Shown: in pieces, positions 7,641-47,125 of the stretch
How the letters are laid out: the number at the start of each line of letters is the position of its first letter
How positions within the stretch are numbered: the first letter of the stretch is position 1
Source: Alphaproteobacteria bacterium
Lineage (GTDB): Bacteria; Pseudomonadota; Alphaproteobacteria; CBDDJK01
DNA: 64,000 bases
Reading direction: 5' to 3'
Assembly: GCA_965229675.1 (NCBI GenBank)
Contig: OZ245897.1
Span: forward strand, 1,185,127-1,249,126
Position numbers and translations under genes: made by a program
The notes under the pieces: model-generated
Seen by the model: the letters and a program-made list of their open reading frames with translations, nothing else
The model's database searches: none
What the model was told of the DNA's origin: nothing

Positions 7641-7681
7641 GACCCTCTTTTTAAAATTATGTTAATTGCAATCTGTTACCG

Positions 7682-7710: not shown

Positions 7711-9009
7711 GGCGGTTTTACTTACAGGGAGGGTGACCTCAATGACGTGTTCGGGTTCAAAAATTAGTTTTAAGTCAACGCGCTCGCCTTCCTCAATAGG
7801 ACGCTGCAATTCCATCAACATAATATGTGCCTTATGCGGGTGAAGATCAACTATTTGTCCACCATCAATGGCAATCCCATCTTTAAGTTCACGCATTTTC
7901 ATAATTTGATTTTCCATGACTGTTTCATGAAGCTTAGTTTTTTTAACAAAATCAGCCCTAACTTCAATTAAGCGGGCTGGACTGCTTCCTTTATTTTCAA
8001 TTGTAATATAGGCTGCGGCCATTGAACCTGCTGGCTGGCGTACCCAACCATCTTTGACCGTTAATTCTGTTTTTGCAAATACGGACTGACCGATCACTGC
8101 TAAATAGCCAATAAACACAACCAGCATAATAAAACCAGCCCATCTTGGCAGTTGGCCTTTTTTAAACCATAACACCGCCCCAACAAATAAGGTGGCGGCG
8201 ATCATCCACGGCACATCACGATGAAGGAATTGTGCATCCATCTCAAGAACACCGAACAGGCTTGCAACCCCAGGGATTGCAAGGGAGTTAAAGCCATTTG
8301 ATCCCAAAATATTTGCAATTGCCATATCGCTTTGTCTTTTCAAAATTGCTGAAAGGGTTGCGACTAATTCTGGAAGGCTGGTGCCAAATGCGACTAAGGT
8401 TAGCCCTATAATCCCTTCTGATACGCCAACGGCTCTTGCTAATTCTGCACCATAAAGAACGACCATATGCGCCCCTCCAAGTAAGCCGACAAGACCAATG
8501 ATCGCAAAGAGGACGCTGATCAAAAGTGTGGAGGGGGCTTCTGTGTCCTTCTCATCCTCACCATCTTGATCAAAACGTAACGCATAAAAGAAATAGCCAA
8601 TTAAACCAGCAAGCATGATCCCTCCTGCCCATGGGTTTAAGGCGCCTAAATAAACAAAACCAGCAAGCACAAAGGTTGATACTACCATCAAACCATTGTC
8701 ACGCATCACAGAATGAACTGCCCCTGATAAAGGCATAATTGCTGCGCCAAGGCCCAGAACCAGTAACAGGTTCATAATGTTACTGCCGATGATATTGCCA
8801 ACAGCGATGGCATCTTTGCCGCCAATATTTGCCTCAACCCCAATAAATAATTCTGGCGCAGAGGTACCAAATCCCATCACCACCAAACCGATTAAAGCAG
8901 GCGATACACCAAGGCGATTGGCAAGCCCTAAGCCGCCGCGCACCAATATATCACCGCCGCCAATTAATAAAATCAACCCCAAAATTGTTAAGAAAATTGT
9001 TAATAGCAT
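7705..9009 (-). CDS. CaCA-family Na+/Ca2+ exchanger (YrbG-like) fused at the C-terminus to a PCu(A)C copper-chaperone domain
   Basis: Residues 1 to about 320 carry two alpha-repeats (GTSAPELFIGV and GTSLPELVATL) across roughly 10 TM segments. Residues from about 325 onward match the PCu(A)C/DUF461 pattern: V.DGWVRQP…AAYITIENKG, then the H(M)x10M and HxM copper motifs (HETVMENQIMKM, HPHKAHIMLM). The ORF is continuous with no internal stop. Confidence 0.7.
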   Translation of the reverse strand: MLLTIFLTILGLILLIGGGDILVRGGLGLANRLGVSPALIGLVVMGFGTSAPELFIGVEANIGGKDAIAVGNIIGSNIMNLLLVLGLGAAIMPLSGAVHSVMRDNGLMVVSTFVLAGFVYLGALNPWAGGIMLAGLIGYFFYALRFDQDGEDEKDTEAPSTLLISVLFAIIGLVGLLGGAHMVVLYGAELARAVGVSEGIIGLTLVAFGTSLPELVATLSAILKRQSDMAIANILGSNGFNSLAIPGVASLFGVLEMDAQFLHRDVPWMIAATLFVGAVLWFKKGQLPRWAGFIMLVVFIGYLAVIGQSVFAKTELTVKDGWVRQPAGSMAAAYITIENKGSSPARLIEVRADFVKKTKLHETVMENQIMKMRELKDGIAIDGGQIVDLHPHKAHIMLMELQRPIEEGERVDLKLIFEPEHVIEVTLPVSKTAP

Positions 9010-14158: not shown

Positions 14159-14731
14159 ATGCAGGCTATGATCAAGAAGTCAAGAAAAAATCATTTAACT
14201 AAGGTATTGATGATCATGTTCTACGATTCCTATATCAATCCATTGAATAACGCAATTATCTTTATTGTTCAACTGATAAATAATTGCCCAGTCTATATGT
14301 CTGCTGATAGGTCTTTGCAAAATAGCAAGCGCACTATTGTTATGGTGGAGTCGAATAAACTTCTGGAATTATGGCGAAACGATCCACTTACGCGTCATGC
14401 TGAAATTGCTTACGGAAATCCTGAAAGCTGGTGTAAAGATTATAAATATCATAATGCAGAACAAGGATTTTTAGCGGGCAAAGACAATCCCGTTCCGCTT
14501 GCCGAAATTTCCTATCAGGAATTATCCGAAGCCTATCACAAAAAGAGAGTGACAAGCAGGTTGTTTCAACAAAACCCAAAGAAAATATCTTGTATTTCCT
14601 TTACCAATGGCATTACAAGAACAATCTGGCTTTTATCAAATGGTGCAAGCCATTTTCCTGTTGAATTATATGATTTTAGTGAAGCCGAAAAATTGGCTAA
14701 CATTATGCAAACAGAAATTTATAAAATTTAA
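14159..14731 (+). CDS. Hypothetical protein with a C-terminal ParB/sulfiredoxin-like motif
   Basis: 190 aa, transcribed divergently from the autotransporter. The C-terminal region ISFTNGITRTIWLLSNGASHFPVEL resembles the ParB/Srx-fold signature (DGxHRxxAhxxxGxxxhPV). The last 12 nt overlap the start of repeat copy 2. The exact start is uncertain. Confidence 0.4.
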   Translation: MQAMIKKSRKNHLTKVLMIMFYDSYINPLNNAIIFIVQLINNCPVYMSADRSLQNSKRTIVMVESNKLLELWRNDPLTRHAEIAYGNPESWCKDYKYHNAEQGFLAGKDNPVPLAEISYQELSEAYHKKRVTSRLFQQNPKKISCISFTNGITRTIWLLSNGASHFPVELYDFSEAEKLANIMQTEIYKI

Positions 14732-30869: not shown

Positions 30870-33305
30870 ATGTCAAACACACTACCAAGCCAAGCAAAAT
30901 GTGTGATTGTAGGTGGCGGTATTATGGGGGTTGGGCTTGCCTATCACCTAGCGCATGCTGGCTGGCAGGATGTCGTATTGATTGAAAAGGCAGAATTAAC
31001 TTCTGGTTCAACATGGCATGCGGCGGGGCAAATTACCCAATCAACTTCCAGCTTTGGCCTTGGTAAATGTGTTGATTATAATTTGCAGCTTTACTCAGGT
31101 GGGCTTGAACGTGAAACAGGGCAAGCGGTAACGTTTCATGGTTGTGGTTCACTTCGCCTTGCTTATAGTGAAGATGAGTTAGATTGGTTAAAACATACGC
31201 TTTCGGTTGGACGCTCCCTTGGGTTTAATATGGAGCTTGTTGATCCACAACGTATTAAACAACTTCATCCATTTTATAAGCTTGATGGCGTATTGGCGGC
31301 ATTACATACGCCCGATGATGGCCATGTTGACCCAACCAATGTCACAATGGCAATGGCAACAGGAGCGCGCCAACAAGGGGCAAAATTATTTCGTCATTGC
31401 CGTGTGCTTAATATTACGCAACTTGAAGATGAGGGATGGCGCATAGAAACTGAATTAGGCACCATTGATTGCGAGCATGTGGTAAATGCCGCTGGTACTT
31501 ATGCACGGCAAATCGGTGAATGGTCAGGGTTGCAATTACCAATGACTTCAATGACCCATCATTATCTGGTTACTGAAGAAGTTCCTGAATTTAAAGACTT
31601 AACCACGGAATTGCCTGTGATCCGTGATGATCGTATGGTCTCTGGTTATATTCGTATGGAGCAAAAAAAGGGACTGATTGGCATTTATGAAAAAGAAAAC
31701 CCAAATAGCGTATGGGAAGAATTTTGTCCATGGGAAGCAGAAAACGAGCTTTTTGCCGCCGATTATGATCGGATTATGCCATGGCTTGAACAGGCAATGG
31801 ATCGTATGCCCGTTTTGGCACCGCTTGGTATTTTACGCGAAGTTCATGGGGCAATCTCCCATCCTCCTGATGGCAATCCGTTGATTGGCCCTGCCCCCAA
31901 TGTTCGCAATTATTGGTGTTGTTGTGGAACGCAAATTGGTATTGGTTGGGGGCCTGGTCTTACTCGTGAATTGGCACGATGGATGGTAAACGGTGCCGCC
32001 GATATTTCGATGCGTGAATATGACCCACGCCGATTTGGTGATTATGCAAAACCAGCTTGGCAAGTGTTAAAAGCAAAAGAAGATTATTGTCTGCGCCATG
32101 AAATTCCTTTTCCACATTTTAATCGGCTTGAAGGTCGCCCAATCAAGCCATCAGGATTATATGAAATCTTAAAAGAAAAAGGGGCGGTTTACGAGGAAGT
32201 CTATGGCCATGAACGCCCGCGCTGGTTTGCAGGCGATGGGATTGAACAACGCGATTATTACAGCTTTCGCCGAAATGAAGTTTTTTCGCGCATAGCCCGT
32301 GAAGTAAAAGGCGTGCAAACTTCCGCTGGTATCATGGATATTTCTGCATTCACCAAAATCGAGGTTAGTGGGACTGATGCAGCAGCAATGCTTGAACCTT
32401 TAGTTGCCAATCGCTTGCCTAAAAAAACAGGTGGAATTGCGCTAACCCATATTTTGAATGAAGCAGGACGCATTGAACTTGAAACGACCCTTATTCGTCT
32501 TGAGGACACACGCTATTATTTTGTATGTGCCGCCTTTTTTGAACAAAGATTGCTTGACCATCTTGAAGCGCATCGCAAGACATTTGATATAACGATCGTC
32601 AACCATTCTCAAAATTGGGGTGCGCTTGCCCTGAATGGCCCTTGCGCCCGCCAGATATTAGGGGCTTGTACCGATGCTGATCTATCAAATACAGGTTTTC
32701 GTTGGTTGAGCGCACAGCAAATTTCAATCTGTGGTCATGCCGTTTGGGCGTTTCGTATATCTTATGCGGGTGAATTGGGTTGGGAATTACATGTGCCGAA
32801 CCAAGTAATAGCAGAAGTTTATGCAGGTTTAGAACAAGCAGGAAGACCACTTGGCATGGTTGATTATGGTAGCTTTGCCATGAATAGTATGCGAATGGAG
32901 AAGGCTTTTAAAGGCGCAGGAGAACTGACCAACGAAGTGACATTACCTGAAGCGGATGTTATGCGTTTTGTTGATCAAAATAAATCATTTATTGGGAAGC
33001 AAGCAACCCTATCTAATCCACCAAAATGGATATGTGCCTATCTTGAAATTGAAGCGGACGGCATCGAAGACGGTAACGGAGGTGAATCGGTACTAATCAA
33101 TGATCAGGTAATCGGTTCGGTTTCCAGCATTGCTTATGGTCATCGTGTAAATAAATTATTGGCTTTTGCTTATATTAAACCAGAGAGCTATATTAAAGGG
33201 CAAGCGGTGACGGTTATCATTGCAAATAAACCACGCGCAGGAATGATTTTAGGTGACGAGGCGGCTTATGACCCTGAAAGCAAATTGCCAAGAACAGAAG
33301 GCTAA
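30870..33305 (+). CDS. Dimethylglycine/sarcosine-dehydrogenase-like FAD oxidoreductase with a C-terminal GcvT-type folate-binding domain
   Basis: 811 aa. The N-terminal is a DAO-type FAD fold (VIVGGGIMGVGLAYHLAHAGW). The C-terminal ~350 aa form an aminomethyltransferase (GcvT) domain. This is the same architecture as DMGDH, SardH and the HpbA-type N-methyl-amino-acid demethylases. Confidence 0.8.
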   Translation: MSNTLPSQAKCVIVGGGIMGVGLAYHLAHAGWQDVVLIEKAELTSGSTWHAAGQITQSTSSFGLGKCVDYNLQLYSGGLERETGQAVTFHGCGSLRLAYSEDELDWLKHTLSVGRSLGFNMELVDPQRIKQLHPFYKLDGVLAALHTPDDGHVDPTNVTMAMATGARQQGAKLFRHCRVLNITQLEDEGWRIETELGTIDCEHVVNAAGTYARQIGEWSGLQLPMTSMTHHYLVTEEVPEFKDLTTELPVIRDDRMVSGYIRMEQKKGLIGIYEKENPNSVWEEFCPWEAENELFAADYDRIMPWLEQAMDRMPVLAPLGILREVHGAISHPPDGNPLIGPAPNVRNYWCCCGTQIGIGWGPGLTRELARWMVNGAADISMREYDPRRFGDYAKPAWQVLKAKEDYCLRHEIPFPHFNRLEGRPIKPSGLYEILKEKGAVYEEVYGHERPRWFAGDGIEQRDYYSFRRNEVFSRIAREVKGVQTSAGIMDISAFTKIEVSGTDAAAMLEPLVANRLPKKTGGIALTHILNEAGRIELETTLIRLEDTRYYFVCAAFFEQRLLDHLEAHRKTFDITIVNHSQNWGALALNGPCARQILGACTDADLSNTGFRWLSAQQISICGHAVWAFRISYAGELGWELHVPNQVIAEVYAGLEQAGRPLGMVDYGSFAMNSMRMEKAFKGAGELTNEVTLPEADVMRFVDQNKSFIGKQATLSNPPKWICAYLEIEADGIEDGNGGESVLINDQVIGSVSSIAYGHRVNKLLAFAYIKPESYIKGQAVTVIIANKPRAGMILGDEAAYDPESKLPRTEG

Positions 33306-33310
33306 AATAT

Positions 33311-34417
33311 ATGAAAATCACCCGCATCACTGTTTATCAAAAAGATTTACCGTTAGCCGAGCCTTATTGGCTATCGGGTGGGCGTTTGAAATTTGAGGTT
33401 TTGGACGCAACCTTTGTAAAGATTGAAACAGATGAAGGGCTGACTGGTTGGGGCGAGGGTACGCCTTGGGGGCATACCTATGTTCCCGCCCATGGCCCTG
33501 GTATTCGTGCTGGGATCAAAACCATGGCACCATGGATTATGGGTAAAGACCCACGCCAAATTTTGGAAATAGAACGCGCAATGGATTTAGCCCTGCCTGG
33601 CCATCTTTATGCAAAATCACCAATTGATATGGCAATATGGGATATTAAAGGGCAAGCCGCAGGTCAACCGATTGCAGCCATGATGGGTTCTGCTTCTTTT
33701 ACGCCAAAGCCGATTGCCGCCTCAATTGGTGCAAAGACTGTTGAAGAAACAAGGCGGGTGATGGATGGATATCGCGCGCGGGGCTATGTCAATCATTCTG
33801 TGAAGGTTGGCGGTAATGTTGCGGTTGATATTGCACGCATCCGTGATGTTGAAGCGCACCGCCCGTCCGATGAAACCATTCTTTATGATGTTAATCGGGC
33901 ATGGACACGCCAACAGGCCTTGCGTGTGATGAAAGCGACTGAAAATTTAGGAGTGATGTTTGAACAACCAGGGGAGACACTGGCGGATATTGCCGCCATT
34001 CGTGCGCTTCATAGTGCGCCTGTTTCCATTGATGAAACGCTGGTCACGTTACAAGATGCAACCCGTATCGCAACGGATGGTATTGGTGAAGTTTTTGGCA
34101 TTAAGCTTAATCGCGTTGGTGGCCTTACCAAGGCGGCACGGATGCGCGATATTGCCTTGGCGCATGGGATTGATTGCTATGTGATGGCAACAGGTGGTTC
34201 GGTCTTGGCAGACACAGAAGCCTTGCATCTTGCCGCAACCATTCCTGATCATAATCTATTGGGGGTTTGGGCTTGCCAAGATATGATCACTGCTGAAATT
34301 GCTGATGGGGCTGGCTCTCGTGCAACAAAGGGGCATTTAACCCTTGAATCCAAAGCAGGGCTTGGGGTTCACCCCGATGAAAAGACTTTAGGAAGCCCTG
34401 AGGCAGTCTATCAATGA
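33311..34417 (+). CDS. Enolase-superfamily MR/MLE enzyme (candidate betaine or amino-acid epimerase, HpbD-like)
   Basis: 368 aa with an N-terminal capping domain and a barrel domain with metal-ligand and Lys acid/base positions (KVGG…DVNRAW…DET). It overlaps the next paralogue by 4 nt. Confidence 0.7.
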   Translation: MKITRITVYQKDLPLAEPYWLSGGRLKFEVLDATFVKIETDEGLTGWGEGTPWGHTYVPAHGPGIRAGIKTMAPWIMGKDPRQILEIERAMDLALPGHLYAKSPIDMAIWDIKGQAAGQPIAAMMGSASFTPKPIAASIGAKTVEETRRVMDGYRARGYVNHSVKVGGNVAVDIARIRDVEAHRPSDETILYDVNRAWTRQQALRVMKATENLGVMFEQPGETLADIAAIRALHSAPVSIDETLVTLQDATRIATDGIGEVFGIKLNRVGGLTKAARMRDIALAHGIDCYVMATGGSVLADTEALHLAATIPDHNLLGVWACQDMITAEIADGAGSRATKGHLTLESKAGLGVHPDEKTLGSPEAVYQ

Positions 34418-35508
34418 AAATCACCCGCCTTAATTTATGGTATGTCCCTTTAACCAGCCATGAAGCCTATCATATGGCAGAGGGTAAAAGCTGCACAACA
34501 GTTGAAAGCGTTATATTAAAGATTGACACCGATACAGGGCTTTGTGGATGGGGGGAGGTCTGTCCGATTCCGCATTACCTACCTGCTTATGCAAGGGGGA
34601 TTGTACCAGCCGTTAAAGAACTATCCCCCATTTTACTTGGCGCAGAATTGGTTGGGGTGGAAGCGTTAATGGCCAAGATTGATGCTTATTTAATAGGTCA
34701 TGCTTATGCTAAATCCCTGATTGATATAGCATTATGGGATTTGACCGCCAAGCAAGCCAATCTTCCTTTATATATGTTTCTTGGCGGTCGCCAGAATGAA
34801 AGCCTACCGCTTTATCATTCCGTAACGTGCATTGAACCTCAGATTATGGTTGAACATGCACGTAAGGCCTATGAAACGGGTATTCGTCAAATTCAAGTAA
34901 AGCTTGGCGCAGATCAAAATTGGCGTAAAGATGTTGAACGATTAACAAAGATTAGAGAGGCAATGCCAGCCGATGTTTTGGTCTATGGCGATTGGAATTG
35001 CGGTGCAGATAAGCTAACTGCCATTCGCGTTGGTCGCGCGGTTCGCCATCTTGATATTATGTTGGAACAGCCTTGCGAAACAATCGAACAATGCGCTGAT
35101 GTTCGTAACGCAACAGGCCTTGCCATGAAATTTGATGAAAATGCGCATGATATTCCAAGCCTGTTAAAAGCAAGCCAGCTAGGTTGTATGGATGCAGTTG
35201 CGATTAAAACGTCCAAATTCGGTGGAATCAGCCGTGTGCGGCGTGCGCGTGATCTTTGCGTTGAGCTTGGTGTTAAATTATGTATTGAAGACACATGGGG
35301 TAGCGACATTGCCACAGCCGCCGCCCTGCATCTTGCCACCGCTACCCCAGCAAAATTTATTTTGAATGTATGCGATTTATCGCATTATGTCAGCCCACGC
35401 TTGGATGAGGCCGCACCAACCCGCCATCAAGGGCGCATTACCCCACCGCAAGGGATTGGGCTTGGCGTTACCCCACAGCTTTCTAATCCTGAAATTGTCA
35501 TTGAATAG
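34414..35508 (+). CDS. Second enolase-superfamily MR/MLE paralogue
   Basis: 364 aa with the same fold, and divergent rather than a recent duplicate. Confidence 0.7.
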   Translation: MKITRLNLWYVPLTSHEAYHMAEGKSCTTVESVILKIDTDTGLCGWGEVCPIPHYLPAYARGIVPAVKELSPILLGAELVGVEALMAKIDAYLIGHAYAKSLIDIALWDLTAKQANLPLYMFLGGRQNESLPLYHSVTCIEPQIMVEHARKAYETGIRQIQVKLGADQNWRKDVERLTKIREAMPADVLVYGDWNCGADKLTAIRVGRAVRHLDIMLEQPCETIEQCADVRNATGLAMKFDENAHDIPSLLKASQLGCMDAVAIKTSKFGGISRVRRARDLCVELGVKLCIEDTWGSDIATAAALHLATATPAKFILNVCDLSHYVSPRLDEAAPTRHQGRITPPQGIGLGVTPQLSNPEIVIE

Positions 35509-35518
35509 GTAGGCAATA

Positions 35519-36877
35519 ATGACCTTAGATTTAACAAATTATCCAACTGAAAATCCTGAATGGGTTGCTGAAACGCACGCTAATCATTATCTGCAAAGCT
35601 GGTCAAAACAAGGTGGAAAGCCACTGGTGATTACGGGGGGGAGTGGTTCTTGGTTTTGGGATCATACAGGCAAACGCTATCTTGATTTTCAATCCCAACT
35701 GGTGAATATGAATCTTGGTCACCAACATCCTAAAATCATTCAAGCGATTAAAGAACAAGCTGATCGCTTATGTTATATTGGACCTGCCATGGGTTCAGAT
35801 GTGCGTTCTGAACTTGCCGCTTTGATGACGGAGATCACGCCGTCAAACCTCACCTCAACCTTTTTCACAACGGGCGGTGCGGCCGCAAATGAATTAGCCA
35901 TTCGTCTTGCCCGTCATTATACAGGACGCAATAAAATTATTGCCCGCTATCGTTCTTATCATGGGGCAACGGGCGGGGCGTTAAGTCTTAGTGGGGATCC
36001 ACGCCATCATCTAACCCGTGTTGATATGCCAGGGGTTGTGCGGATGCTGGATCCTTATTGTTACCGCTGTCCGATGAACCACCGTAAACCTGCTGATTGT
36101 CCTGTTTGTTCAGGCGAACCGCATTTGGAAGAATTATTACAATATGAAAATCCGCAAACTGTTGCCGCTATTATTATTGAAACGGTGGTTGGCACAAACG
36201 GGATTATTGTTCCCCCTGATGGCTATTTACAATCAATTCGCAAAACCTGTGATAAATATGGGATTTTGATGATTACCGATGAAATTATGGCAGGGTTTGG
36301 CCGCACAGGCAAATGGTTTGCGGTTGATCATTGGGGGATTGAACCTGATATTTTAACTTCGGCGAAAGGTATTAATTCTGGTTACGTACCACTTGGAACG
36401 ATGAGCGTATCAGAAACATTAGCGCATTGGCTTAAAGATCATCAATTGCCAGGTGGTTTGACCTATGCAGGGCATCCGCTAGCCTGTGCATCAGGTGTTG
36501 CGGCTATTCGTGCTATGGCGGAAGAAGGAACCCTTGAACATGCAACCAAGATGGGGGATTTGATGCGTAAGGAATTAAAAAAACTTGCAAAGCACCATCC
36601 TTCCATCGGGGATATTCGTGGACTTGGTCTGTTTAACGGAATTGAATTGGTCAAAGATCATAAAGAGCGAACACCGCTAGTTCCCTTTGCCGCCAAGGGT
36701 GCCACAGCCGAACCCATGACAAAATTAATGGCAGCTGCCATGGATAAAGGGCTTTATTTAAGCGGATTTTCCAATGTAATACGCCTAACCCCACCTTTGA
36801 ATATTACAAAAGTAGATTTAATGACGGGACTTAGCATTTTAGATGATGTGCTAACCATTGCAGATGAATATATTTAA
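35519..36877 (+). CDS. Class-III (omega) PLP-dependent aminotransferase
   Basis: 452 aa with the fold-type-I class III pattern, DEIMAGFGRTGKWFA (PLP Asp and the Lys region TSAKG). Confidence 0.8.
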   Translation: MTLDLTNYPTENPEWVAETHANHYLQSWSKQGGKPLVITGGSGSWFWDHTGKRYLDFQSQLVNMNLGHQHPKIIQAIKEQADRLCYIGPAMGSDVRSELAALMTEITPSNLTSTFFTTGGAAANELAIRLARHYTGRNKIIARYRSYHGATGGALSLSGDPRHHLTRVDMPGVVRMLDPYCYRCPMNHRKPADCPVCSGEPHLEELLQYENPQTVAAIIIETVVGTNGIIVPPDGYLQSIRKTCDKYGILMITDEIMAGFGRTGKWFAVDHWGIEPDILTSAKGINSGYVPLGTMSVSETLAHWLKDHQLPGGLTYAGHPLACASGVAAIRAMAEEGTLEHATKMGDLMRKELKKLAKHHPSIGDIRGLGLFNGIELVKDHKERTPLVPFAAKGATAEPMTKLMAAAMDKGLYLSGFSNVIRLTPPLNITKVDLMTGLSILDDVLTIADEYI

Positions 36878-36978
36878 TAGGATATGAGGTTGAATTATTG
36901 ATCGGTTAAACTTATATCAGGCTAAATCATGATGATAGTTCTATCTTAAGAAAATTCAAAAAATGGGAAACCCACACA

Positions 36979-37557
36979 ATGTTTATTTATACTGAACAAA
37001 CGCCTAATCCCGAAACGCTAAAATTCTTACCTGGGGTAACCGTGATGGGAACCGATTCTGCCGTGGAATTTAAAGATTCAGAAGCTGCTTTTCAAGCTTC
37101 TCCGCTTGCAGGGACTTTGCTTGAGCTTGATGGGGTTGCAGGTGTGTTTTTTGGCAGTGATTTTATCTCCGTCACCAAAGAAACGGATCAGGAATGGTAT
37201 GTCATTAAACCTTCTGTGTTGGGTGTGATGATGGAACATTTTACAACTGAACGCCCTCTGTTCATTGATCAATCTTCCGCACATATAAAACCCGAAAACG
37301 CCCCACAATATGCCGAAGAAGATGCAGAAATTGTTGAAAAAATTGAACAATTACTTGAAACAAAAGTGCGTCCAGCCGTTTCCCAAGATGGTGGCGATAT
37401 TGTGTTTCATGGATTTGAACGCGGGGTTGTCTATCTTGCAATGCGCGGTGCTTGTGCGGGCTGTCCAAGCTCCACCGCTACTTTAAAGATGGGGATTGAA
37501 AATTTATTAAAACATTATATTCCCGAAGTCACCGAAGTTCGACCCAGTACAATTTAA
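36979..37557 (+). CDS. NifU/Nfu-type Fe-S cluster scaffold/carrier protein
   Basis: 192 aa with an Nfu N-terminal domain and a C-terminal NifU-like domain carrying CxxC (GACAGCPSS). Confidence 0.75.
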   Translation: MFIYTEQTPNPETLKFLPGVTVMGTDSAVEFKDSEAAFQASPLAGTLLELDGVAGVFFGSDFISVTKETDQEWYVIKPSVLGVMMEHFTTERPLFIDQSSAHIKPENAPQYAEEDAEIVEKIEQLLETKVRPAVSQDGGDIVFHGFERGVVYLAMRGACAGCPSSTATLKMGIENLLKHYIPEVTEVRPSTI

Positions 37558-37620
37558 ATCATGACAATTTAAATCATATCTTTACTTTGAATTGAATGAA
37601 AAAAATGCTAAACAATTAGC

Positions 37621-38901
37621 ATGGCTTCATTATTCAAACAAATCACTGAAATCACGATTTTCCTGATTTTAGTTGCAGTTGGGGTTTACTGGCTTTTTCC
37701 AACCTTAGAGCAAACTCTGCTCGCCAATATTTATATTAATGGCATTATTCTTTTTGTGTTATTGATTGGTATCTTGCTGGTTTATAAAACCATGTATGAT
37801 TTGATTGCTGCGCAACGCTGGAGCGATCAATTTCGTGAACTTGATGCCGTTCATACCGAAGATCAATCAGAAGCAATGACGCTTGTTGCGCATAGCCCGC
37901 GCCTGATCCGTTCAACGGCTACTTTGCTTAACCAACGCCTTCAAGAAATAGGTTATGTTCAATTAAATTCAACGGGAATGCGTGCCGTGCTTGAAGGCTT
38001 ATCAATCCGCCTTGATGAAACACGTGAAACTTTGCGCTATGTTGTTGGTTTACTTGTCTTTTTGGGGTTACTTGGGACATTTTGGGGATTGATGCAAACC
38101 ATCTATTCTGTAGGGGGCGTGATTGACAATTTATCAGCAGATGGTGATTTGGCAGGAAGTGCGCTTGGGGGCAGTTTTGAATTATTAAAAGAAGGGTTAA
38201 GACAGCCGTTAAATGGTATGGGAACAGCCTTTTCATCTTCGCTTTTTGGTTTGGCAGGCTCCCTTTTACTTGGCTTTTTTGCCTTACGCGTTTCACAAGC
38301 ACAAAATCGCTTTTATCAAGAATATGAAGAATGGTTATCTGGTTTGACCCGTTTGTCAGGGGCAATGGTTGGTGAAGGTGATACATCAGGCATGGGGCTT
38401 GCGCTATCTTTGCTTGAACAAACCGCAGATTCCATTGACCGTTTGCAAAAAATCATCAGCCGTTCTGAAAGCCATCAAGCGGAGCTTTACACCCATATTG
38501 GTAATCTTAACCAGCGTTTGGGAACGCTTGTGGATTCGCAAAAAATTGAGCATGAATTAATGCGTAAGCTTGCTGAAGGTCAGCTAAGCACCCGCCAACT
38601 GCTGGAACGCATGCTGGAACAAGATGGCATAACAGAAGGAAATGAAGGCACTTCCACAAGCATTAAAGCATTGGAGCAAGTGTTGATACGCCTATCCGCA
38701 GAACAAAGGCAAGAACAAGAGCGCAACACGCAGTTAATCCGTGATGAATTACGATTGGTGGCGCGGACTATTTCAAACTCACTTGGGACTGTCGTCAATG
38801 CACGCCCCATCCCTTCAAAAGCTGCCATTGAAACAGAAACACAAGAAGGGGAACGGATGCCGCCCCCGCTTACTATTCCAGACCGTCAAGATAATAGTTA
38901 A
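37621..38901 (+). CDS. MotA/TolQ/ExbB-family proton-channel protein with a ~200-aa C-terminal coiled-coil tail
   Basis: 426 aa with a 2+2 TM topology. TM3/TM4 carry the family motifs GLLGTFWGLMQTI and GMGTAFSSSLFGLAGSL. After TM4 comes a long charged, heptad-rich region (QEYEEWL…ELRLVART). Confidence 0.6.
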   Translation: MASLFKQITEITIFLILVAVGVYWLFPTLEQTLLANIYINGIILFVLLIGILLVYKTMYDLIAAQRWSDQFRELDAVHTEDQSEAMTLVAHSPRLIRSTATLLNQRLQEIGYVQLNSTGMRAVLEGLSIRLDETRETLRYVVGLLVFLGLLGTFWGLMQTIYSVGGVIDNLSADGDLAGSALGGSFELLKEGLRQPLNGMGTAFSSSLFGLAGSLLLGFFALRVSQAQNRFYQEYEEWLSGLTRLSGAMVGEGDTSGMGLALSLLEQTADSIDRLQKIISRSESHQAELYTHIGNLNQRLGTLVDSQKIEHELMRKLAEGQLSTRQLLERMLEQDGITEGNEGTSTSIKALEQVLIRLSAEQRQEQERNTQLIRDELRLVARTISNSLGTVVNARPIPSKAAIETETQEGERMPPPLTIPDRQDNS

Positions 38902-38935
38902 TCATTCATAATCCCCTGCGCATAGAAATAAGCCC

Positions 38936-40060
38936 ATGCTGATCAGACGCCATCGCCAACAAACCGATATTTGGCCAGGATTTGTTGATTCTCTTTCAGC
39001 ATTGATTATGGTCATTATCTTTTTATTGATGATTTTTGTTGTCGCACAATTTTTTCTTGGGGAAACTTTATCAGGGCGCAATCGCGAAGTCGGGATACTC
39101 AATCAGGAACTATCAAAATTAGCTGAAATTTTAGCATTAGAAGAGCGCAAAACAGAAAGCCTTTCTAACCAGCTTACTAATTTACAACAGGAATTAACCG
39201 CCAGCCTCAACGAAAATAAAAATTTAAAAACAACATTGGAAACTACCCAACAAGCATTGCAAGCCACCACCTCAGAATTAGATGAAATGACAAAATCGTT
39301 TCTTGCGCTTGAGGCGAATGTCCGTGCGCTTGAAGCAAAACGCGATGATTTAATTAATGATATTGCAAGCCGCGATCAAAGATTAGAGGAAGCTGAACGC
39401 CAGCAAATCAAGGATCAAGCAGAATTATCCTTATTAAACCAACAAATGCAAGCCTTACGCGAGCAATTAGGCCGCTTGGAGCAATTATTATCAGAGGCTG
39501 AACAACGCAACAAAGAAGCAAATGCACAAATTGTTGATTTGGGGAAACGGTTAAATGTTGCATTGGCAACCAAGGTCAGCGAGCTTGCACAATATCGTTC
39601 AGAATTTTTTGGTAAATTACGTGAAATTTTAGGTAAGCGTGAAGATATTAAAATCGTTGGGGATCGGTTTGTATTTCAATCGGAAGTTTTATTTGATCAA
39701 GGTGCTGCCGAGCTTGGCGTTGAAGGGCAATTACAATTAGCGCGGTTATCCAAGACTTTAAAAGAAATTACCGATAGCATTCCAGCCGACTTAAAATGGA
39801 TTTTGCAGGTTGAAGGCCATACGGATACAATCCCCATTCAAACCACAGCTTTTCCTTCAAATTGGGAATTATCGCTTGCGCGTGCCTTATCGGTTGTGCG
39901 CTTTTTAATTGGTCAGGGCATTGCACCAGAACGCCTATCTGCCGCAGGGTTTGGGGAGTTTCAACCCCTTAATCCAGCCGATACGCCAACCGCCCACAGG
40001 CAAAACCGCCGTATTGAGTTAAAACTTACAGATCGTGCAGAAACTGATAAAAGAGAATAA
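38936..40060 (+). CDS. MotB/OmpA-family protein: MotB-like TM with the conserved Asp, a ~200-aa coiled coil, and a C-terminal OmpA-like peptidoglycan-binding domain
   Basis: The N-terminus IWPGFVDSLSALIMVIIFLLMIF matches the MotB/ExbD/TolR plug and TM with the protonatable Asp. The C-terminus (VLFDQGAAEL…HTDTIP…NRRIEL) is an OmpA_C-like domain. Confidence 0.65.
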   Translation: MLIRRHRQQTDIWPGFVDSLSALIMVIIFLLMIFVVAQFFLGETLSGRNREVGILNQELSKLAEILALEERKTESLSNQLTNLQQELTASLNENKNLKTTLETTQQALQATTSELDEMTKSFLALEANVRALEAKRDDLINDIASRDQRLEEAERQQIKDQAELSLLNQQMQALREQLGRLEQLLSEAEQRNKEANAQIVDLGKRLNVALATKVSELAQYRSEFFGKLREILGKREDIKIVGDRFVFQSEVLFDQGAAELGVEGQLQLARLSKTLKEITDSIPADLKWILQVEGHTDTIPIQTTAFPSNWELSLARALSVVRFLIGQGIAPERLSAAGFGEFQPLNPADTPTAHRQNRRIELKLTDRAETDKRE

Positions 40061-40062
40061 AA

Positions 40063-41643
40063 TTACTCAGCCGTGCCTAATTCAGCTTTACGGTTTTTAA
40101 TATATTCCTGCAATTTTCCATCAATCATTGAATCCAATTCAGGGGCTTGATAGGTTTCAAGTGCCTGCTTCCATGCCTTATTTGCACGCGTACTCATATC
40201 AAGCTCACCTTCTTGTAGCCATTGTTCATAGCTATTATGATCCATCAAAGGCGAACGATAAAAAGCAGACTCAAAGTTACGAAGCGTATGATTGCATCCA
40301 AGATAATGACTGCCAGGACCAACCTCTTCAATTGCATCCATTGCCTGCCCTTCTTCCGTAAAATCAGGGCCATTAGCAAAGCGTACCATCATCGCTGCTT
40401 GATCAGCATCCATCATAAATTTTTCATAACTCATCACCAGCCCGCCTTCCAGCCAGCCTGCGGTATGTAGCATGAAATTCACGCCGCCTAATAATGCAGT
40501 TTGTAGCGTATTTGCAGATTCAAATGCAGCTTGTGCATCAGGAATTTTTGAACCACATAACCCACCACCAGAACGAAATGGAATGCCAAGACGGCGTGCA
40601 AGCTGTCCTGCGCCATAAAGCACCCATGACGCTTCAGGTGTACCAAAAGTTGGTGCGCCTGATTGCATTGAAATTGAGGCCGCAAATGTTCCAAACACCA
40701 CGGGCGCACCTTTTCGAACAATTTGGGTAAGTGCCGCCCCACTTAAAACTTCTGCATAGATTTGAGCAAGCGTGCCTGCGGCGGTTACAGGACTCATCGC
40801 CCCTGAAAGAATAAAGGGGGAGACAACACAGGCTTGATTATTGCGCGCATAAACTTTTAATGCGCCAAGCATCATATTATCCCACACCATCGGACTGTTG
40901 GCATTGATCAAGTTTAACATCACACAATTTTGATCAACAAAGTCTTCACCAAAGACAATTTTACAAAGTTCAACGCTATCTTGCGCGCGTTCAGGAGCCG
41001 TCACTGACCCCATGAATGGCTTATCACTGTAACGAATATGCGAATAAACCATATCAAGATGGCGGACATTCACAGGAATATCAACAGGTTCGCAAACCGT
41101 TCCCCCTGAATGTTGCAATCCGGGGGAGAGATAAGCAAGTTTCACAAAATTTTCAAAATCTTTAAGGGTGGCATAACGCCGTCCTCCATCTAAGTCCCTT
41201 ACAAAAGGTGGACCATAGGCTGGCACAAGTACAATATGCTCCCCACCAATCATCACGGAACGTTGCGGGTTTCGGGCATGTTGCATAAATTCCTTGGGTG
41301 CATTATCTTGAATCAGGCTTTGGCAAAGCCCTTCAGGAAAACAAACGCGCGAGCCATTAACCTTACATCCCGCATCGCTGAGTAGGCTTAAAACTTCTTC
41401 ATCTTCACGAAAATCAATGCCATATTGGCTTAAAATTCGATTGGCATTGCCTTCAATCTGATCAAGCTGGGCTTCAGTTAATAAAGTAAAAGGTTCAAAT
41501 TGACGTTTAACAATCGCTCCGCCACTGGCGGCAGCCTTTGCTGTTTCTTGACGCGCAGCTTGACGTCCTGCTCTTCCGCCACCAGAGCGTCCCCCACCAG
41601 CACGGCGTTTCGTTTCAGCATGTTCACTCGATTGTTGTTCCAT
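40063..41643 (-). CDS. MttB-superfamily methyltransferase (non-pyrrolysine; quaternary-amine:corrinoid/THF methyltransferase-like)
   Basis: 526 aa TIM-barrel MttB-family member with no in-frame amber codon, and an RGG-rich N-terminal extension (RRAGGGRSGGGRAGRQAARQ). Confidence 0.7.
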   Translation of the reverse strand: MEQQSSEHAETKRRAGGGRSGGGRAGRQAARQETAKAAASGGAIVKRQFEPFTLLTEAQLDQIEGNANRILSQYGIDFREDEEVLSLLSDAGCKVNGSRVCFPEGLCQSLIQDNAPKEFMQHARNPQRSVMIGGEHIVLVPAYGPPFVRDLDGGRRYATLKDFENFVKLAYLSPGLQHSGGTVCEPVDIPVNVRHLDMVYSHIRYSDKPFMGSVTAPERAQDSVELCKIVFGEDFVDQNCVMLNLINANSPMVWDNMMLGALKVYARNNQACVVSPFILSGAMSPVTAAGTLAQIYAEVLSGAALTQIVRKGAPVVFGTFAASISMQSGAPTFGTPEASWVLYGAGQLARRLGIPFRSGGGLCGSKIPDAQAAFESANTLQTALLGGVNFMLHTAGWLEGGLVMSYEKFMMDADQAAMMVRFANGPDFTEEGQAMDAIEEVGPGSHYLGCNHTLRNFESAFYRSPLMDHNSYEQWLQEGELDMSTRANKAWKQALETYQAPELDSMIDGKLQEYIKNRKAELGTAE

Positions 41644-41765
41644 CCTATCCCTCTTAAAAAATAATTAAATCTAACCCATCAATAAATTAAGGCAACATAA
41701 CCAATAATTCGGATAACGACTTATCCAATGGATTTTGCGCCATTATTCAGTAATAGTTGCTTATT

Positions 41766-43265
41766 TTAAGCAGAACCAGGGAAGTTTAATTGTGCGCCAG
41801 CGCGAATCCCTGTTGGCCATCTGGAAGAAACCGTTTTAAGGCGGGTGTAAAAATTAATTCCTTCTGGTCCATAAATTGGATTAGAGCCAAAGAAAGACTG
41901 TTTCCAGCCGCCAAAAGAGTGGTACGCAACAGGAACGGGAATTGGCACATTGATTCCAACCATGCCAACTTCAATATGATTAGCAAAATTACGTGCCGCA
42001 TCGCCATCACGGGTAAAAATGGCAACTCCGTTGGCATAATGGTGATTATGGATCAAGGAAACAGCATCGTCAAATGAATCTACGCGAACGGTTGATAGAA
42101 CTGGGCCAAAAATCTCTTCACGATAAATTGACATGTCTGGTGTAACCCGATCAAATAAACTGCCTCCCATGAAGAACCCATCTTCATAGCCCTGCATTTT
42201 AAAATCACGCCCATCAACAACCAGTTCTGCCCCTTCTTTCACACCTTGATCAATATAATCTACAACCCGATCATAATGTTGCTTGGTTACTAAAGGCCCC
42301 ATTTCAGCAACCTTATCAGTAGCAGGGCCAATTTTTAAACTTGAGACACGCGGAGCTAGCTTATCAATAAGCCGATCAGCCGTTTCTTGACCAACAGGAA
42401 CAGCAACCGAAATTGCCATGCACCGTTCGCCAGCCGAACCGTAACCCGCACCAATCAAAGCATCTGCAGCTTGGTCTAAATCCGCATCTGGAAGAATGAC
42501 CATGTGGTTTTTCGCTCCACCTAAGGCTTGCACCCGCTTATGATTTGCGGTTCCTGTTTGATAGACATAGGCGGCAATCGGCGTTGAGCCAACAAAGCTA
42601 ACCGCTTTAATATCTGGATCGGTTAAAATCGCATCTACAACCTCTTTATCACCATTAACCAGTTGTAAGACATTCGGCGGGAAGCCAGCTTCAATAAATA
42701 ATTCATAAAGCAATAATGGCGTGGATGGATCGCATTCTGAAGGTTTTAAAATAAAACTATTGCCGCAAACAATGGCAAGAGGGAACATCCATAACGGCAC
42801 CATCGCAGGAAAATTAAATGGTGTAATTCCAGCACAAACGCCCATCGGCATCCGCAAAGTGTAGCTATCAACCGCAGGCCCAACATTTCTGGAATACTCA
42901 CCTTTAAGCAGATGAGGAATACCGCAGGCAAATTCAACATTTTCAATCCCGCGTTGAACTTCGCCTAGCGCATCTTCATAAACTTTGCCATGTTCTTCAC
43001 CAAGTAGCTTTGCAAGCTTATCTTGATTTTTAACCAGCAATTCACGGTAAGCCATCATCATACGTGCTTTTTTGGCAGGTGGCACCTCGCTCCATTCAGG
43101 AAAGGCTGCTTTGGCTGAAGCCACAGCTTGCCGTAATTCATCCGCACTGCATAAGCCTAAACTTGCAGTCTGTTGACCCGTTGCTGGATTATGAACTGCG
43201 GAAACACGCCCACTTGCAGTATGAAACACAGCCCCATCAATCATGCTATGAATTGGCTTGGTCAT
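41766..43265 (-). CDS. mmsA: CoA-acylating methylmalonate-semialdehyde dehydrogenase
   Basis: 499 aa ALDH-superfamily protein with an MMSDH-type N-terminus and catalytic Cys (GERCMA) and no catalytic-Glu ELGG motif, consistent with the CoA-acylating subgroup. Confidence 0.8.
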   Translation of the reverse strand: MTKPIHSMIDGAVFHTASGRVSAVHNPATGQQTASLGLCSADELRQAVASAKAAFPEWSEVPPAKKARMMMAYRELLVKNQDKLAKLLGEEHGKVYEDALGEVQRGIENVEFACGIPHLLKGEYSRNVGPAVDSYTLRMPMGVCAGITPFNFPAMVPLWMFPLAIVCGNSFILKPSECDPSTPLLLYELFIEAGFPPNVLQLVNGDKEVVDAILTDPDIKAVSFVGSTPIAAYVYQTGTANHKRVQALGGAKNHMVILPDADLDQAADALIGAGYGSAGERCMAISVAVPVGQETADRLIDKLAPRVSSLKIGPATDKVAEMGPLVTKQHYDRVVDYIDQGVKEGAELVVDGRDFKMQGYEDGFFMGGSLFDRVTPDMSIYREEIFGPVLSTVRVDSFDDAVSLIHNHHYANGVAIFTRDGDAARNFANHIEVGMVGINVPIPVPVAYHSFGGWKQSFFGSNPIYGPEGINFYTRLKTVSSRWPTGIRAGAQLNFPGSA

Positions 43266-43297: not shown

Positions 43298-43798
43298 TCA
43301 GGCTTTTTTACTGCTTGTTGTTGCAGTAGATGCCACTGCACTGGAAGAACCAACAGAGGCACTTTCATCGGTTTTAGGTGATTTTGTTGAACTTTGGTTA
43401 TAATTTTTATGCTTTAACTGACCATTAATTTGTGCGCCTTCATGAACTTGCAGCAGCTCATAAAGTATATCCCCCTGAATTTTAGCAGAAGGATGCAAGA
43501 CAATCCTACGTGCGGTTATATTACCGTTGACACTACCAGAGATTGCCGCCTCCTCCGCTTCAATGCTACCGATCACATGGCCACTTTCCCCAATTGTTAG
43601 AATATTAGAGCGCACATTACCTTCAATTGAACCATCAATCTGCAAATCCCCATCATTATCCAAATCACCTGAAAGGCGGAAATTCGCCGCTAAAACAGAA
43701 AGTGGCACATCTGCCTTTGCTGATTGTGATGAAAATTTAGGATCCATTGTTGTCATGCCCTTCGGATTGGTTTGTGGTTTTTGTGATTTTGTAAACAT
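43298..43798 (-). CDS. bacA: Bactofilin (DUF583) cytoskeletal protein
   Basis: Beta-helical repeat region (LSGDLDNDGDLQIDGSIEGNV…HVIGSIEAEEAAISGSVNGNITARRIVL) and a Ser/Thr-rich tail. The start MFTKSQ has an AGGCAGGA ribosome-binding site. Confidence 0.75.
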   Translation of the reverse strand: MFTKSQKPQTNPKGMTTMDPKFSSQSAKADVPLSVLAANFRLSGDLDNDGDLQIDGSIEGNVRSNILTIGESGHVIGSIEAEEAAISGSVNGNITARRIVLHPSAKIQGDILYELLQVHEGAQINGQLKHKNYNQSSTKSPKTDESASVGSSSAVASTATTSSKKA

Positions 43799-45089
43799 AG
43801 CGTCCTGCCTTAATAAATGGTTCTGGGTCAATATGTTGACCGTTCATAATAATTTCAAAATGCAAATGCGGGCCAGTTGAGCGACCAGTGCTACCAAGTG
43901 TACCAATCACATCTCGGTAGGCAACTTCATCTCCACGCTTAACCTTCATTTGCTTTAAATGGCCATAGCGTGTGGTAATTTTACACCCATGGTCAATTTC
44001 AATACGCTTTCCATATCCTGTATTACGATCCGACTTTACAACTTTTCCAGCGGCCGCAGCATAAATATTGATCCCTGGCCACCCCCCAAGATCAAGCCCT
44101 GCATGCATTGCAGGCCTTCCATTAATTGGGTCTTTACGCTGTCCAAAACGGCTGGTCACATGATAATAATCAACAGGCGCGCTTAGTGGCAAACAAGATA
44201 GCAATCTATCCATTGCTTCCAATTTAGCCAGATCAAAATCCATTTCTTGCTGTTGTTCAAATAAAGCTAAAGCCGAACCTGTTAAGCCATCATAATTTGC
44301 CATTTTATCTGGCGTGTCACCACCTGCCGCAGGATTAACGCCTACCAACGTCAATAATTTTGTAAGGCTAACCCCTGTCCTTTTTAAGACTTGCTCACGG
44401 CTATAAAGGTCTTGCTTCACAAACCCATGAAATTGATTGGTTAGATTCGCCTGAAGCGTATAAAGTTCATCAAGGCGATTGACCTGTTCGTCAACAGCAC
44501 CAGCCATCGCGACAGGATCATCTTCATCCGATTCAACAGATACCAATGCGTTTAAACCTTTAAGCGATTCAAGCATTTGACCACGCGCTTGTTGTTCTGC
44601 TGATAATTGATCATTTAAATTTTTCACCTGTGCAAATAGGTGATCACGCGATTTAACCATTTGCTCCGCCAATAGCTGGTCACCCTCAAGATCAATCTCC
44701 AACCGCATCATAAACGCATCCAACGTATTGCGCAGTGCCTTCATTGCATCGCCATCCGATGTTTCTATCTTATCAGACTCATTTAACTGATCGGTTAAGC
44801 GTTGATTTAACTGGGTTTGATGATGGCGCATATCCTGAATAAGATCATTATAAGCAACGCGTCCTTCTTGGATAATTTGATCACGAGCCGCAATTTCCGT
44901 TGATTGATAGCCAGCATAAAGAGTAATGACCAGCGCAAAACCAACGATAGATACGGCAAGCGCACTGAATAAAATTTGAACAGGGACACTAAGACGCAGA
45001 TAACGCATCTTACCATCACGGCGCAGAATAACCTCTCGCTCATGATATATTTTTTTCAAAAAAACAGTGATGGCGTTTGAAATACGCAA
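43737..45089 (-). CDS. Bitopic M23 (LytM-type) metallopeptidase with a coiled-coil linker, LmdC-like
   Basis: 450 aa with an N-terminal cytoplasmic tail, one TM, about 250 aa of coiled coil, and a C-terminal M23 domain (HAGLDLG…HLHFEI). Its stop overlaps the bactofilin start. Confidence 0.8.
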   Translation of the reverse strand: MRISNAITVFLKKIYHEREVILRRDGKMRYLRLSVPVQILFSALAVSIVGFALVITLYAGYQSTEIAARDQIIQEGRVAYNDLIQDMRHHQTQLNQRLTDQLNESDKIETSDGDAMKALRNTLDAFMMRLEIDLEGDQLLAEQMVKSRDHLFAQVKNLNDQLSAEQQARGQMLESLKGLNALVSVESDEDDPVAMAGAVDEQVNRLDELYTLQANLTNQFHGFVKQDLYSREQVLKRTGVSLTKLLTLVGVNPAAGGDTPDKMANYDGLTGSALALFEQQQEMDFDLAKLEAMDRLLSCLPLSAPVDYYHVTSRFGQRKDPINGRPAMHAGLDLGGWPGINIYAAAAGKVVKSDRNTGYGKRIEIDHGCKITTRYGHLKQMKVKRGDEVAYRDVIGTLGSTGRSTGPHLHFEIIMNGQHIDPEPFIKAGRYVYKITKTTNQSEGHDNNGS

Positions 45090-46234: not shown

Positions 46235-47125
46235 ATGGCTAGAGAAATCAATTTAAATTCATCCCAGCGGGATGTTTTACTTCAACTGCGCAATGTTGAT
46301 CGGCTTGCGGATCGTACTAATGAACGCCTTAGTACTGGCGAAAAGGTCAATTCAATTACCGATGATGCAATTGCTTATTTTCAGGCTTTTGCCTTGGATG
46401 GGCGTGCAGAATTGCTTACAGGTAAAAAAACTGAAATTGATCAGGGCGTATCAGCAATTTCAGCATCGATTGATGCAATTGAATCAGTCAATGATTTGCT
46501 GGATACGATGAAAGGCATTGCAGAATCTATTGCAACGCAAACTACGGCTGAGAAAGTAAGTTCAACCGAACAATTTAATGAAATTGGCAATCAGATATCT
46601 AGTTTGATTGAGGATGCGTCTTATAATGGTATCAATTTACTTAATTCAACGGCAAATTCATTGGATGTTTCTTTTTCAGACCGTGCAGGTTCGGAGCTAA
46701 ATTTAGCAGGCGCAGATCTAAATTCAACTACGGTTAGCGATGCTGCCCTCTTTGAGAATGTTGCGTTTGATTCTAACTTAGATTTCTTGGGCGTTTCAAC
46801 ATTAGGCGTGAATATCCAAGGATTTTCAGTTGCAACCACCAGTGATATCGATACAATTACACAAAGTATAGATGACGCAGTTTCAAGACTTCAAAGCTTG
46901 GCAAATTCTTATGGAAGCTATGTTTCTGTGCTTGAGTCGCGCTCTGAATTTACAGAAAATTATATTTCAACCTTGGAAGAGGGAGCGGATAAGCTAACAT
47001 TAGCGGATCTTGATGAAGAATCGGCCAATTTAACGGCGTTGCAAACCCGTCAAGAGCTTAGTGTTGAAACGCTAGCAATTTCTGGTGAGATGGAGCGTTA
47101 TACATTGAAATTATTAACCGATTAA
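46235..47125 (+). CDS. Flagellin (short, Caulobacter-type, about 30 kDa)
   Basis: 296 aa whose N-terminal (…RLSTGEKVNSITDDAIAYF…) and C-terminal (…LTALQTRQELSVETLAISG…) helical segments match the conserved flagellin D0/D1 regions, with an FNGxxLL-like core (YNGINLLNS). No other flagellar genes are in the window. Confidence 0.7.
   Translation: MAREINLNSSQRDVLLQLRNVDRLADRTNERLSTGEKVNSITDDAIAYFQAFALDGRAELLTGKKTEIDQGVSAISASIDAIESVNDLLDTMKGIAESIATQTTAEKVSSTEQFNEIGNQISSLIEDASYNGINLLNSTANSLDVSFSDRAGSELNLAGADLNSTTVSDAALFENVAFDSNLDFLGVSTLGVNIQGFSVATTSDIDTITQSIDDAVSRLQSLANSYGSYVSVLESRSEFTENYISTLEEGADKLTLADLDEESANLTALQTRQELSVETLAISGEMERYTLKLLTD

Follow-up and report, generated by a model that had tools for sequence, protein, structure and literature searches.

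The 64,000-nucleotide (nt) stretch of alphaproteobacterial DNA analyzed here, referred to as the window and providing the coordinates used throughout, carries two adjacent genes, A (37621-38901) and B (38936-40060). These genes are a vertically inherited housekeeping pair found across the Alphaproteobacteria and probably encode a 5:2 ion-driven rotary motor of a distinct alphaproteobacterial family, with ZorAB of the Zorya anti-phage systems as its nearest characterized relative by sequence. Features of the rotary motor superfamily are present in both proteins, as A has a channel domain with conserved polar residues on two inner transmembrane (TM) helices and B a single N-terminal TM helix with a conserved Asp. 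The original prediction made for this locus had described an orphan MotA/MotB-like pair and had left two readings, an envelope machine of unknown output driven by the proton motive force or a Zorya-like sensor that has lost its effectors or has them encoded elsewhere. The architecture was confirmed and the first of these readings fits everything found here, but the pair is no orphan: it belongs to a large family with a conserved housekeeping position, and both the curated family of B (NF006543) and the orthologues known as motA/motB from work on Komagataeibacter hansenii had been overlooked.

Architecture of the A and B proteins

Both open reading frames (ORFs) were found on the forward strand where they had been predicted, with a gap of 34 nt between them, and carry the following features (aa, amino acids; AF2, AlphaFold2).

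37621-38901, + strand: gene A, channel (rotor) subunit of 426 aa, TolQ/ExbB/ZorA class, four TM helices followed by a cytoplasmic helical tail (ORF, Pfam, PADLOC, Foldseek)
37648-37791, + strand: TM1 (aa ~10-27) and TM2 (aa ~37-57) of A (hydropathy; AF2 helices 2-35 and 37-76)
38041-38115, + strand: TM3 of A with the motif FLGLLGTFWGL (invariant in 66 sequences; block conservation 0.93)
38077-38079, + strand: codon of A Thr153, counterpart of the TolQ ion-path Thr (GLFGTVWG) and of ZorA Thr147
38218-38289, + strand: TM4 of A with the motif GMGTAFSSSLFGLAGSL (block conservation 0.95; Ser-rich face, counterpart of the TolQ TM3 Thr and ZorA Ser184)
38386-38796, + strand: cytoplasmic tail of A, helices aa 256-335 and 343-392 (AF2, invariant columns, heptad z=3.5, ZorA1 alignment)
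38854-38883, + strand: C-terminal Pro-rich motif RMPPPLTIPD of A (aa 412-421; window sub-clade only, disordered in AF2)
38936-40060, + strand: gene B, stator subunit of 374 aa in which a TM helix with Asp18 is followed by a coiled-coil stalk and a peptidoglycan-binding domain (ORF, NF006543)
38975-39055, + strand: TM helix of B (aa ~14-40) with W13-P14-G15-x-V17-D18 (invariant columns, hydropathy, AF2 helix from residue 14)
38987-38989, + strand: codon of B Asp18 (invariant in 54 sequences)
39056-39631, + strand: periplasmic coiled-coil stalk of B (aa 41-232, no Pro; AF2, heptad z=8.3, matches to coiled-coil Pfam families)
39647-40036, + strand: OmpA/MotB-type peptidoglycan-binding domain of B (aa ~238-367; Pfam OmpA, PDB matches, hhalign)

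The description of A as a channel of the MotA/TolQ/ExbB type with four TM helices was borne out. Hydropathy placed hydrophobic segments at aa ~10-27, 37-57, 141-165 and 200-223, and Pfam MotA_ExbB (PF01618) matched at 26.1 bits, barely over its cut-off of 22.9. The AF2 model, a single chain like all models used here, was built from 66 homologues (pLDDT, predicted local distance difference test, 76) and consists of helices 2-35, 37-76, 117-172, 182-248, 256-335 and 343-392 followed by a disordered Pro-rich end. When compared by Foldseek with the PDB, it matched TolQ (9DDM), ZorA (8VVN, 8QYK and 8QYD) and ExbB (5ZFP and 5SV0), the ZorAB reference structures among these being 8QYD (EcZorAB) and 8VVN (Shewanella); no MotA or PomA chain appeared within the top 50 matches. 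In a comparison of ZorA/ZorB, MotA and TolQ/ExbB sequence models, A was nearest to ZorA and not to MotA. PADLOC ZorA1, from a library that contains no competing housekeeping models, aligned with aa 36-389 at 50.5 bits, while the NCBIfam TolQ model reached 11.8 bits (cut-off 221) and the NCBIfam MotA models did not match. Across the family, ZorA1 and ZorA3 matched all 66 members (best E 1.5e-16) and Pfam MotA_ExbB matched 22 of them. Alignment of the A profile with Escherichia coli proteins by hhalign gave 60% for TolQ, 52% for ExbB and 2%, in the wrong register, for MotA.

TM3 and TM4 are the most conserved blocks of A. The TM3 motif aligns with TolQ and ExbB (hhalign and phmmer) and with Shewanella ZorA (phmmer), and the Ser-rich TM4 motif GTAFSSSLFGL is common to the TolQ and ZorA alignments; a PDB search with the core segment alone returned sub-threshold matches to TolQ and ZorA that are useful as alignments only. 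TM1 represents an additional N-terminal helix relative to TolQ, ExbB and ZorA, which have three TM helices, and the ZorA1 profile alignment accordingly begins at aa 36. Downstream of TM4, the predicted C-terminal coiled coil of about 200 aa proved roughly right, being helical over ~170 aa with moderate heptad periodicity (z=3.5 against shuffles) and conserved at L264, E266, Q267, A269, Q276, E283, L296, L313, Q321, R382 and T383. The Pro-rich C-terminal motif, R-x-PP[PS]L-[KT]-x-P, is kept in window A as well as in the relatives P0002, P0003 and P0005; the majority of the family, at 381 aa, lacks this motif, which may be a short docking motif.

For B, the predicted TM segment with a protonatable Asp (FVDSLSALIMV) is present, and W13, P14, G15, V17 and D18 are invariant in 54 homologues. 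Asp18 sits at the cytoplasmic end of the sole TM helix and, judged from its conservation, may be essential. No Pfam match to MotB_plug was found in B, and the TM helix runs straight into the stalk. The coiled coil of about 200 aa that had been called from the sequence was recovered as a proline-free helical region (aa 41-232) with strong heptad periodicity (z=8.3 against shuffles), modeled by AF2 (pLDDT 82) as a helix from residue 14 to 146, a low-confidence break at 147-152 and a second helix from 153 to 232. The OmpA-like peptidoglycan anchor likewise held up, with 59.6 bits in Pfam, an hhalign probability of 96.7% (E 3e-10) against E. coli MotB and PDB matches to the domains of MotB, PomB and MotS. 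Its invariant motifs are G-H-T-D (294-297), S308-N309-W310-x-L312-S313-x-x-R316 and N-R-R-I-E (357-361), and the N-x-x-L-x-x-x-R pattern within the second equals the peptidoglycan-binding residues N152, L155 and R159 of ZorB (PMC11946911). Over aa 4-367, B matched NCBIfam NF006543 (PRK09039.1-2, "peptidoglycan-binding protein", a curated equivalog) at 414.4 bits against a cut-off of 305. PADLOC ZorB3 reached 78.5 bits, in a library that, as stated for A, lacks competing housekeeping models, and the B profile showed no similarity to TolR (hhalign 0.8%).

A conserved family at a fixed chromosomal position

A and B each have at least 8000 database relatives, with thousands of full-length homologues of A at 42-66% identity. 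An exhaustive hidden Markov model search of 1.84 billion representatives with A yielded 944 clusters at E<=1e-30, a number that grew to only 3645 when the threshold was relaxed to E<=1e-3, so that the family is self-contained and stays separate from those of TolQ, ExbB and MotA. In a scan of GTDB representatives with one genome per species, relatives of A were detected in at least 577 species, and the best 80 of these, whose loci are described here, belong to the Rhodospirillales, Acetobacteraceae, Azospirillum, Kiloniellales and Kordiimonas. B lies directly 3' of A in 81 of 83 loci and slightly further off in the other two, and in Lichenicola the two genes overlap by 4 nt. The usual gene order is thiE, efp, inositol monophosphatase (IMPase), a gene for a Pro-rich secreted OmpA-like protein in part of the loci, A, B, a convergent ABC transporter and rpmE.

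This position is kept in the Rhodospirillales, the Acetobacteraceae and Sinorhizobium meliloti (orthologues LZK74_31000/30995), where the order is thiE, IMPase, A, B, ABC transporter, rpmE and where the proteins are 36% (A) and 44% (B) identical to those of the window over their full length. The chromosomal position is thus kept across orders of the Alphaproteobacteria. Around A-B in the window and in its nearest relatives, the neighbors are reshuffled and these two genes alone stay together; the window has nfuA upstream and mttB downstream, and the upstream gene for the Pro-rich OmpA-like protein is missing. The S. meliloti record CP090106.1 (locus L091, from PLSDB) is a 3.72-Mb sequence tagged "plasmid pSymB" that has ribosomal protein genes, purE/purK and other core genes, and it therefore looks like a chromosome and is probably mislabeled.

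In 58 of 86 loci, the gene for the Pro-rich product (protein P) directly precedes A and shares its strand (for example at 7066-7983 of locus L068), an arrangement usual in the Rhodospirillales and Acetobacteraceae. Protein P has a Sec signal with an AxA-Q site, 16-35% Pro and a C-terminal OmpA-like domain. In the lineages that carry it, protein P may be a third component of the system. It was rejected as a third component in the window, since its gene is missing beside A-B there, in a 56%-identical relative (L001) and in S. meliloti, and it is not next to A-B in the closest relatives either.

Members of the family are already catalogued but hardly characterized, and they are misnamed ("flagellar motor protein MotA", "chemotaxis protein MotB" in NCBI and JGI) or vaguely named ("peptidoglycan-binding protein"). 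A survey of MotAB homologues (mBio 2025) describes non-flagellar relatives as "generic ion transporters", many of them of unknown function, and does not discuss the A-B family (PMC12505986).

Orthologues in Komagataeibacter hansenii

Our literature search found no mechanistic study of the A-B family besides work on K. hansenii, a species without a flagellum, in which Jacek et al. (2019) studied the sole homologues of motA and motB (PMC6570709). The two proteins have 348 and 321 aa, one with four TM helices and the other with one TM helix and an OmpA domain; their overexpression led to elongated cells, approximately threefold more colony spreading and a looser cellulose with thicker fibres, while fusions to green fluorescent protein (GFP) were polar (PMC6570709). 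Disruption mutants were viable and formed denser cellulose (review PMC7347698). Peptides derived from the published K. hansenii primers match A and B of Lichenicola, a member of the Acetobacteraceae (MTRPTTY at 7/7 positions, AITVVK, QPLDNG and the C-terminal E[F/L]RLTDR*), from which we conclude that these genes belong to the A-B family and are orthologues. This link was made via the primer peptides, as a search seeded with Lichenicola A contained no Komagataeibacter entries among the best 120. The K. hansenii proteins and PRK09039 are thus of the same family as A-B, from which window A differs by its greater length (426 versus 348-381 aa) and its Pro-rich C-terminal motif. With regard to the function of the pair, the energy-receiving partner is unknown according to the authors (PMC6570709), and the original prediction holds insofar as no orthology to a pair with a defined function emerged, the K. 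hansenii work defining none.

Proposed motor and its weaknesses

In the motor that we propose, five A subunits would surround a dimer of B TM helices, and the proton path would run between Asp18 of B and the polar face formed by TM3/TM4 of A (Thr153, Ser205-207). B would be fixed to the peptidoglycan via the MotB-type domain at the tip of its dimeric coiled-coil stalk, and with B anchored in this way proton flow would turn the A pentamer together with the bundle of conserved cytoplasmic tails. Either the A tail or the B stalk would then hand the movement to a partner; the conserved positions in the A tail suggest a specific one. Since gene dosage in K. hansenii alters cell length, spreading and the extracellular cellulose ribbon, we weakly favor a role in cell envelope organization, cell growth or division, which is the least certain part of the proposal; flagellar rotation and phage defence are unlikely roles.

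Several observations weigh against this motor. We infer its 5:2 stoichiometry, ion flow and rotation by homology, and the structure models cover monomers only. The sequence link from A to TolQ and ExbB spans only 19-23 columns, and a PDB sequence search with the complete A profile returned coiled-coil noise only. Neither the MotB plug nor TolR is matched significantly by the N-terminus of B, so that it is the invariant Asp and its position by which the TM helix is called MotB-type. Fully extended, the 190-aa stalk would span ~28 nm, compared with a distance from the inner membrane to the peptidoglycan of ~9 nm in E. coli (PMC11946911), and the hairpin by which AF2 shortens it has low confidence (pLDDT 59-63), which leaves the stalk geometry unexplained. 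No output partner was identified in this analysis. Finally, the K. hansenii data derive mostly from plasmid overexpression and polar GFP foci can be overexpression artefacts, which makes the assigned role a weak one.

Alternative explanations

The alternative that survives best, although we consider it unlikely, is a force transducer of the Tol-Pal/Ton kind in which A-B energizes a periplasmic partner linking the inner membrane to the wall or outer membrane, this partner being protein P in most of the family and its gene having been lost or moved in the lineage of the window. TolQ-TolR and ExbB-ExbD motors have a housekeeping, envelope-related role, TolQ and ExbB are the top fold matches of A together with ZorA, and the channel-helix motif GL(L/F)GT(F/V)WG is held in common. 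The frequent upstream position of the protein P gene also fits, as its product recalls an extended TolA/TonB spacer joined to a Pal-like domain, and PMC6570709 cites a phenotype of tolQ/tolR overexpression that the elongated K. hansenii cells resemble. However, the absence of protein P beside A-B in the window, its closest relatives and S. meliloti indicates that it is not an obligatory part, and its AxA-Q site makes it apparently a cleaved periplasmic protein, not one that is TM-anchored in the motor like TolA or TonB. The subunits differ as well. TolR and ExbD have neither an OmpA-type domain nor a coiled coil, whereas B has both, including a peptidoglycan anchor of its own, and a profile unlike that of TolR; TolQ and ExbB have three TM helices and no long tail, whereas A has four and a tail. 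No TolA, TolB, Pal or TonB gene lies nearby.

It is very unlikely that A-B is a static tether or scaffold between inner membrane and peptidoglycan that has lost ion conduction and uses its coiled coil as a structural spacer. The stalk is long and the length of B variable, ranging from 321 to 445 aa among the sequences examined and reaching 627 aa in NF006542, which suggests a spacer or ruler, and the peptidoglycan-binding residues are conserved. In contrast to this reading, the elements of the putative ion path (Asp18 of B together with the Thr and Ser faces of A TM3/TM4) are the most conserved of all, which would not be expected had ion coupling been lost, and the A tail is conserved too.

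Many database records name the pair as a MotAB paralogue, but a role as an auxiliary flagellar stator is very improbable. Apart from the NCBI and JGI names, this explanation can draw on the N-in topology with four TM helices that A shares with MotA and PomA, the same order of the two genes in the operon, and the single TM helix with an Asp and homologous peptidoglycan-binding domain that B shares with MotB and PomB, its C-terminal domain being most similar to those of MotB, MotD and MotS. A flagellin-family gene is found 6 kb away, and colony spreading increased on overexpression in K. hansenii. Similarity specific to MotA is nevertheless undetectable, with the A profile favoring TolQ and the top 50 folds free of MotA and PomA; the cytoplasmic loop of A is short and a ZorA-like tail takes the place of the torque-generating domain of MotA; and B lacks the MotB plug motif. 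Orthologues occur in K. hansenii, which has neither a flagellum nor other motility genes, and the conserved neighbors are housekeeping genes and not flagellar ones. The absence of MotA-specific similarity and of the plug motif together with these non-flagellar neighbors leaves the name "flagellar motor protein MotA" unsupported.

Least probable of all, and in our judgment highly so, is a Zorya-type anti-phage sensor with effectors elsewhere or lost. The resemblance to the ZorA/ZorB core architecture noted in the original prediction is real at the sequence level, as ZorA models are the top sequence match for A throughout the family and B matches ZorB models. Both systems combine a TolQ/ExbB-like rotor, with Thr and Ser facing the stator Asp (in EcZorAB, ZorA Thr147 and Ser184 contact ZorB Asp26; PMC11946911) and a helical cytoplasmic tail after the last TM helix, with a stator whose MotB-type peptidoglycan-binding domain shares the N-x-x-L-x-x-x-R residues. 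These scores are to be read against a PADLOC library without housekeeping competitors and against clear differences in build. ZorA has three TM helices (PMC11946911) and a tail of ~500 aa, every truncation of which abolished Zorya defence (PMC11946911), whereas A has four TM helices and a tail of ~135-170 aa, and the ZorB domain is fused directly to the TM helix, whereas B has a coiled-coil stalk of ~190 aa.

Zorya is defined by ZorAB plus soluble effectors (ZorC with ZorD, ZorE, or ZorF with ZorG; PMC11946911), partners that A-B does not have. In agreement with what had been predicted, no ZorC, D, E, F or G was present in the ten flanking genes searched with PADLOC or among the Pfam annotations of the window, and the related loci examined likewise had no Zor effector genes. 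The ten flanking genes gave two marginal PADLOC matches only (E ~0.001, ~16 bits) and no credible defence gene, and the base composition and GC content of the A-B region do not differ from those of the remaining window. The fixed syntenic position among housekeeping genes and the vertical inheritance across orders make A-B unlike mobile, patchy defence islands. Matches to ZorA/ZorB of the PADLOC type in Alphaproteobacteria should not be counted as defence systems when effector genes are absent.

Neighboring genes in the window

The gene nfuA, encoding an Nfu/NifU-type Fe-S scaffold (36979-37557), ends 63 nt upstream of A, and the next gene after B is, as predicted, a convergent mttB for an MttB-family methyltransferase (40063-41643), 2 nt past its end. 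Promoter and terminator scans of 36800-40300 yielded nothing exceeding shuffled expectation. The annotated neighbors across the window are ordinary metabolic and housekeeping genes by their Pfam domains. Among the 52 annotated ORFs there are no tolA, tolB, pal, tonB, gliding or flagellar-motor genes, so that the claimed isolation of the pair from such genes stands except for a lone flagellin-family gene 6.2 kb downstream (46235-47125, + strand), which lies beside glmS. Its 296-aa product has Flagellin_N and Flagellin_C domains and scores far below the cut-off of all NCBIfam flagellin models, and it is the only flagellar gene in the window.

Adjoining genes for a bactofilin and an M23 endopeptidase (43298-43831 and 43737-45089, both on the - strand) are located 3.2 kb downstream of A-B, a pairing that resembles the one described for bactofilin-guided cell-shape systems. 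In the relative L001, bactofilin and M23 genes (5943-7911) immediately precede A-B and share its strand. This linkage was rejected as a family trait, since such genes are not near A-B in 84 other loci, the closest relatives included.

The pair is flanked by genes of one-carbon and methylated-amine metabolism (30870-36877 and 40063-43265), comprising a DAO-GCV_T fusion of the dimethylglycine/sarcosine dehydrogenase type, two enolase-superfamily genes, a class-III aminotransferase, MttB and an aldehyde dehydrogenase, a gene set that fits a marine heterotroph. Elsewhere in the window, a PFIN (plasmid fertility inhibition factor) domain occurs, at 118.7 bits, in the 190-aa product of 14159-14731 (+ strand), which lies amid chromosomal housekeeping genes, and 7705-9009 (- strand) is a single ORF with an unusual fusion of an Na/Ca exchanger membrane domain to a C-terminal PCu(A)C copper chaperone domain.

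Significance of the A-B family

Five kinds of 5:2 motor have a known output, namely flagellar rotation, Ton uptake, Tol-Pal envelope maintenance, gliding and Zorya defence. Tentatively, and with more doubt than for the rotary motor as such, we raise the possibility that A-B represents a sixth functional class, a core chromosomal ZorAB-like motor of the Alphaproteobacteria that would be related to the Zorya sensor as its housekeeping counterpart and possibly its ancestor. Such a motor would sense envelope state via its peptidoglycan-bound coiled-coil stalk and signal by its rotating pentameric tail to an undiscovered partner for growth, division or polar organization.

A-B constitutes a further family of probable 5:2 motors that is large, strongly conserved and present in tractable species (S. 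meliloti, Azospirillum and Komagataeibacter), with a distribution of at least 577 species and a synteny reaching from the Rhodospirillales to Sinorhizobium. Finding the targets of the A tail and the B stalk would extend the known uses of this motor design and could show the origin of the Zorya sensor.

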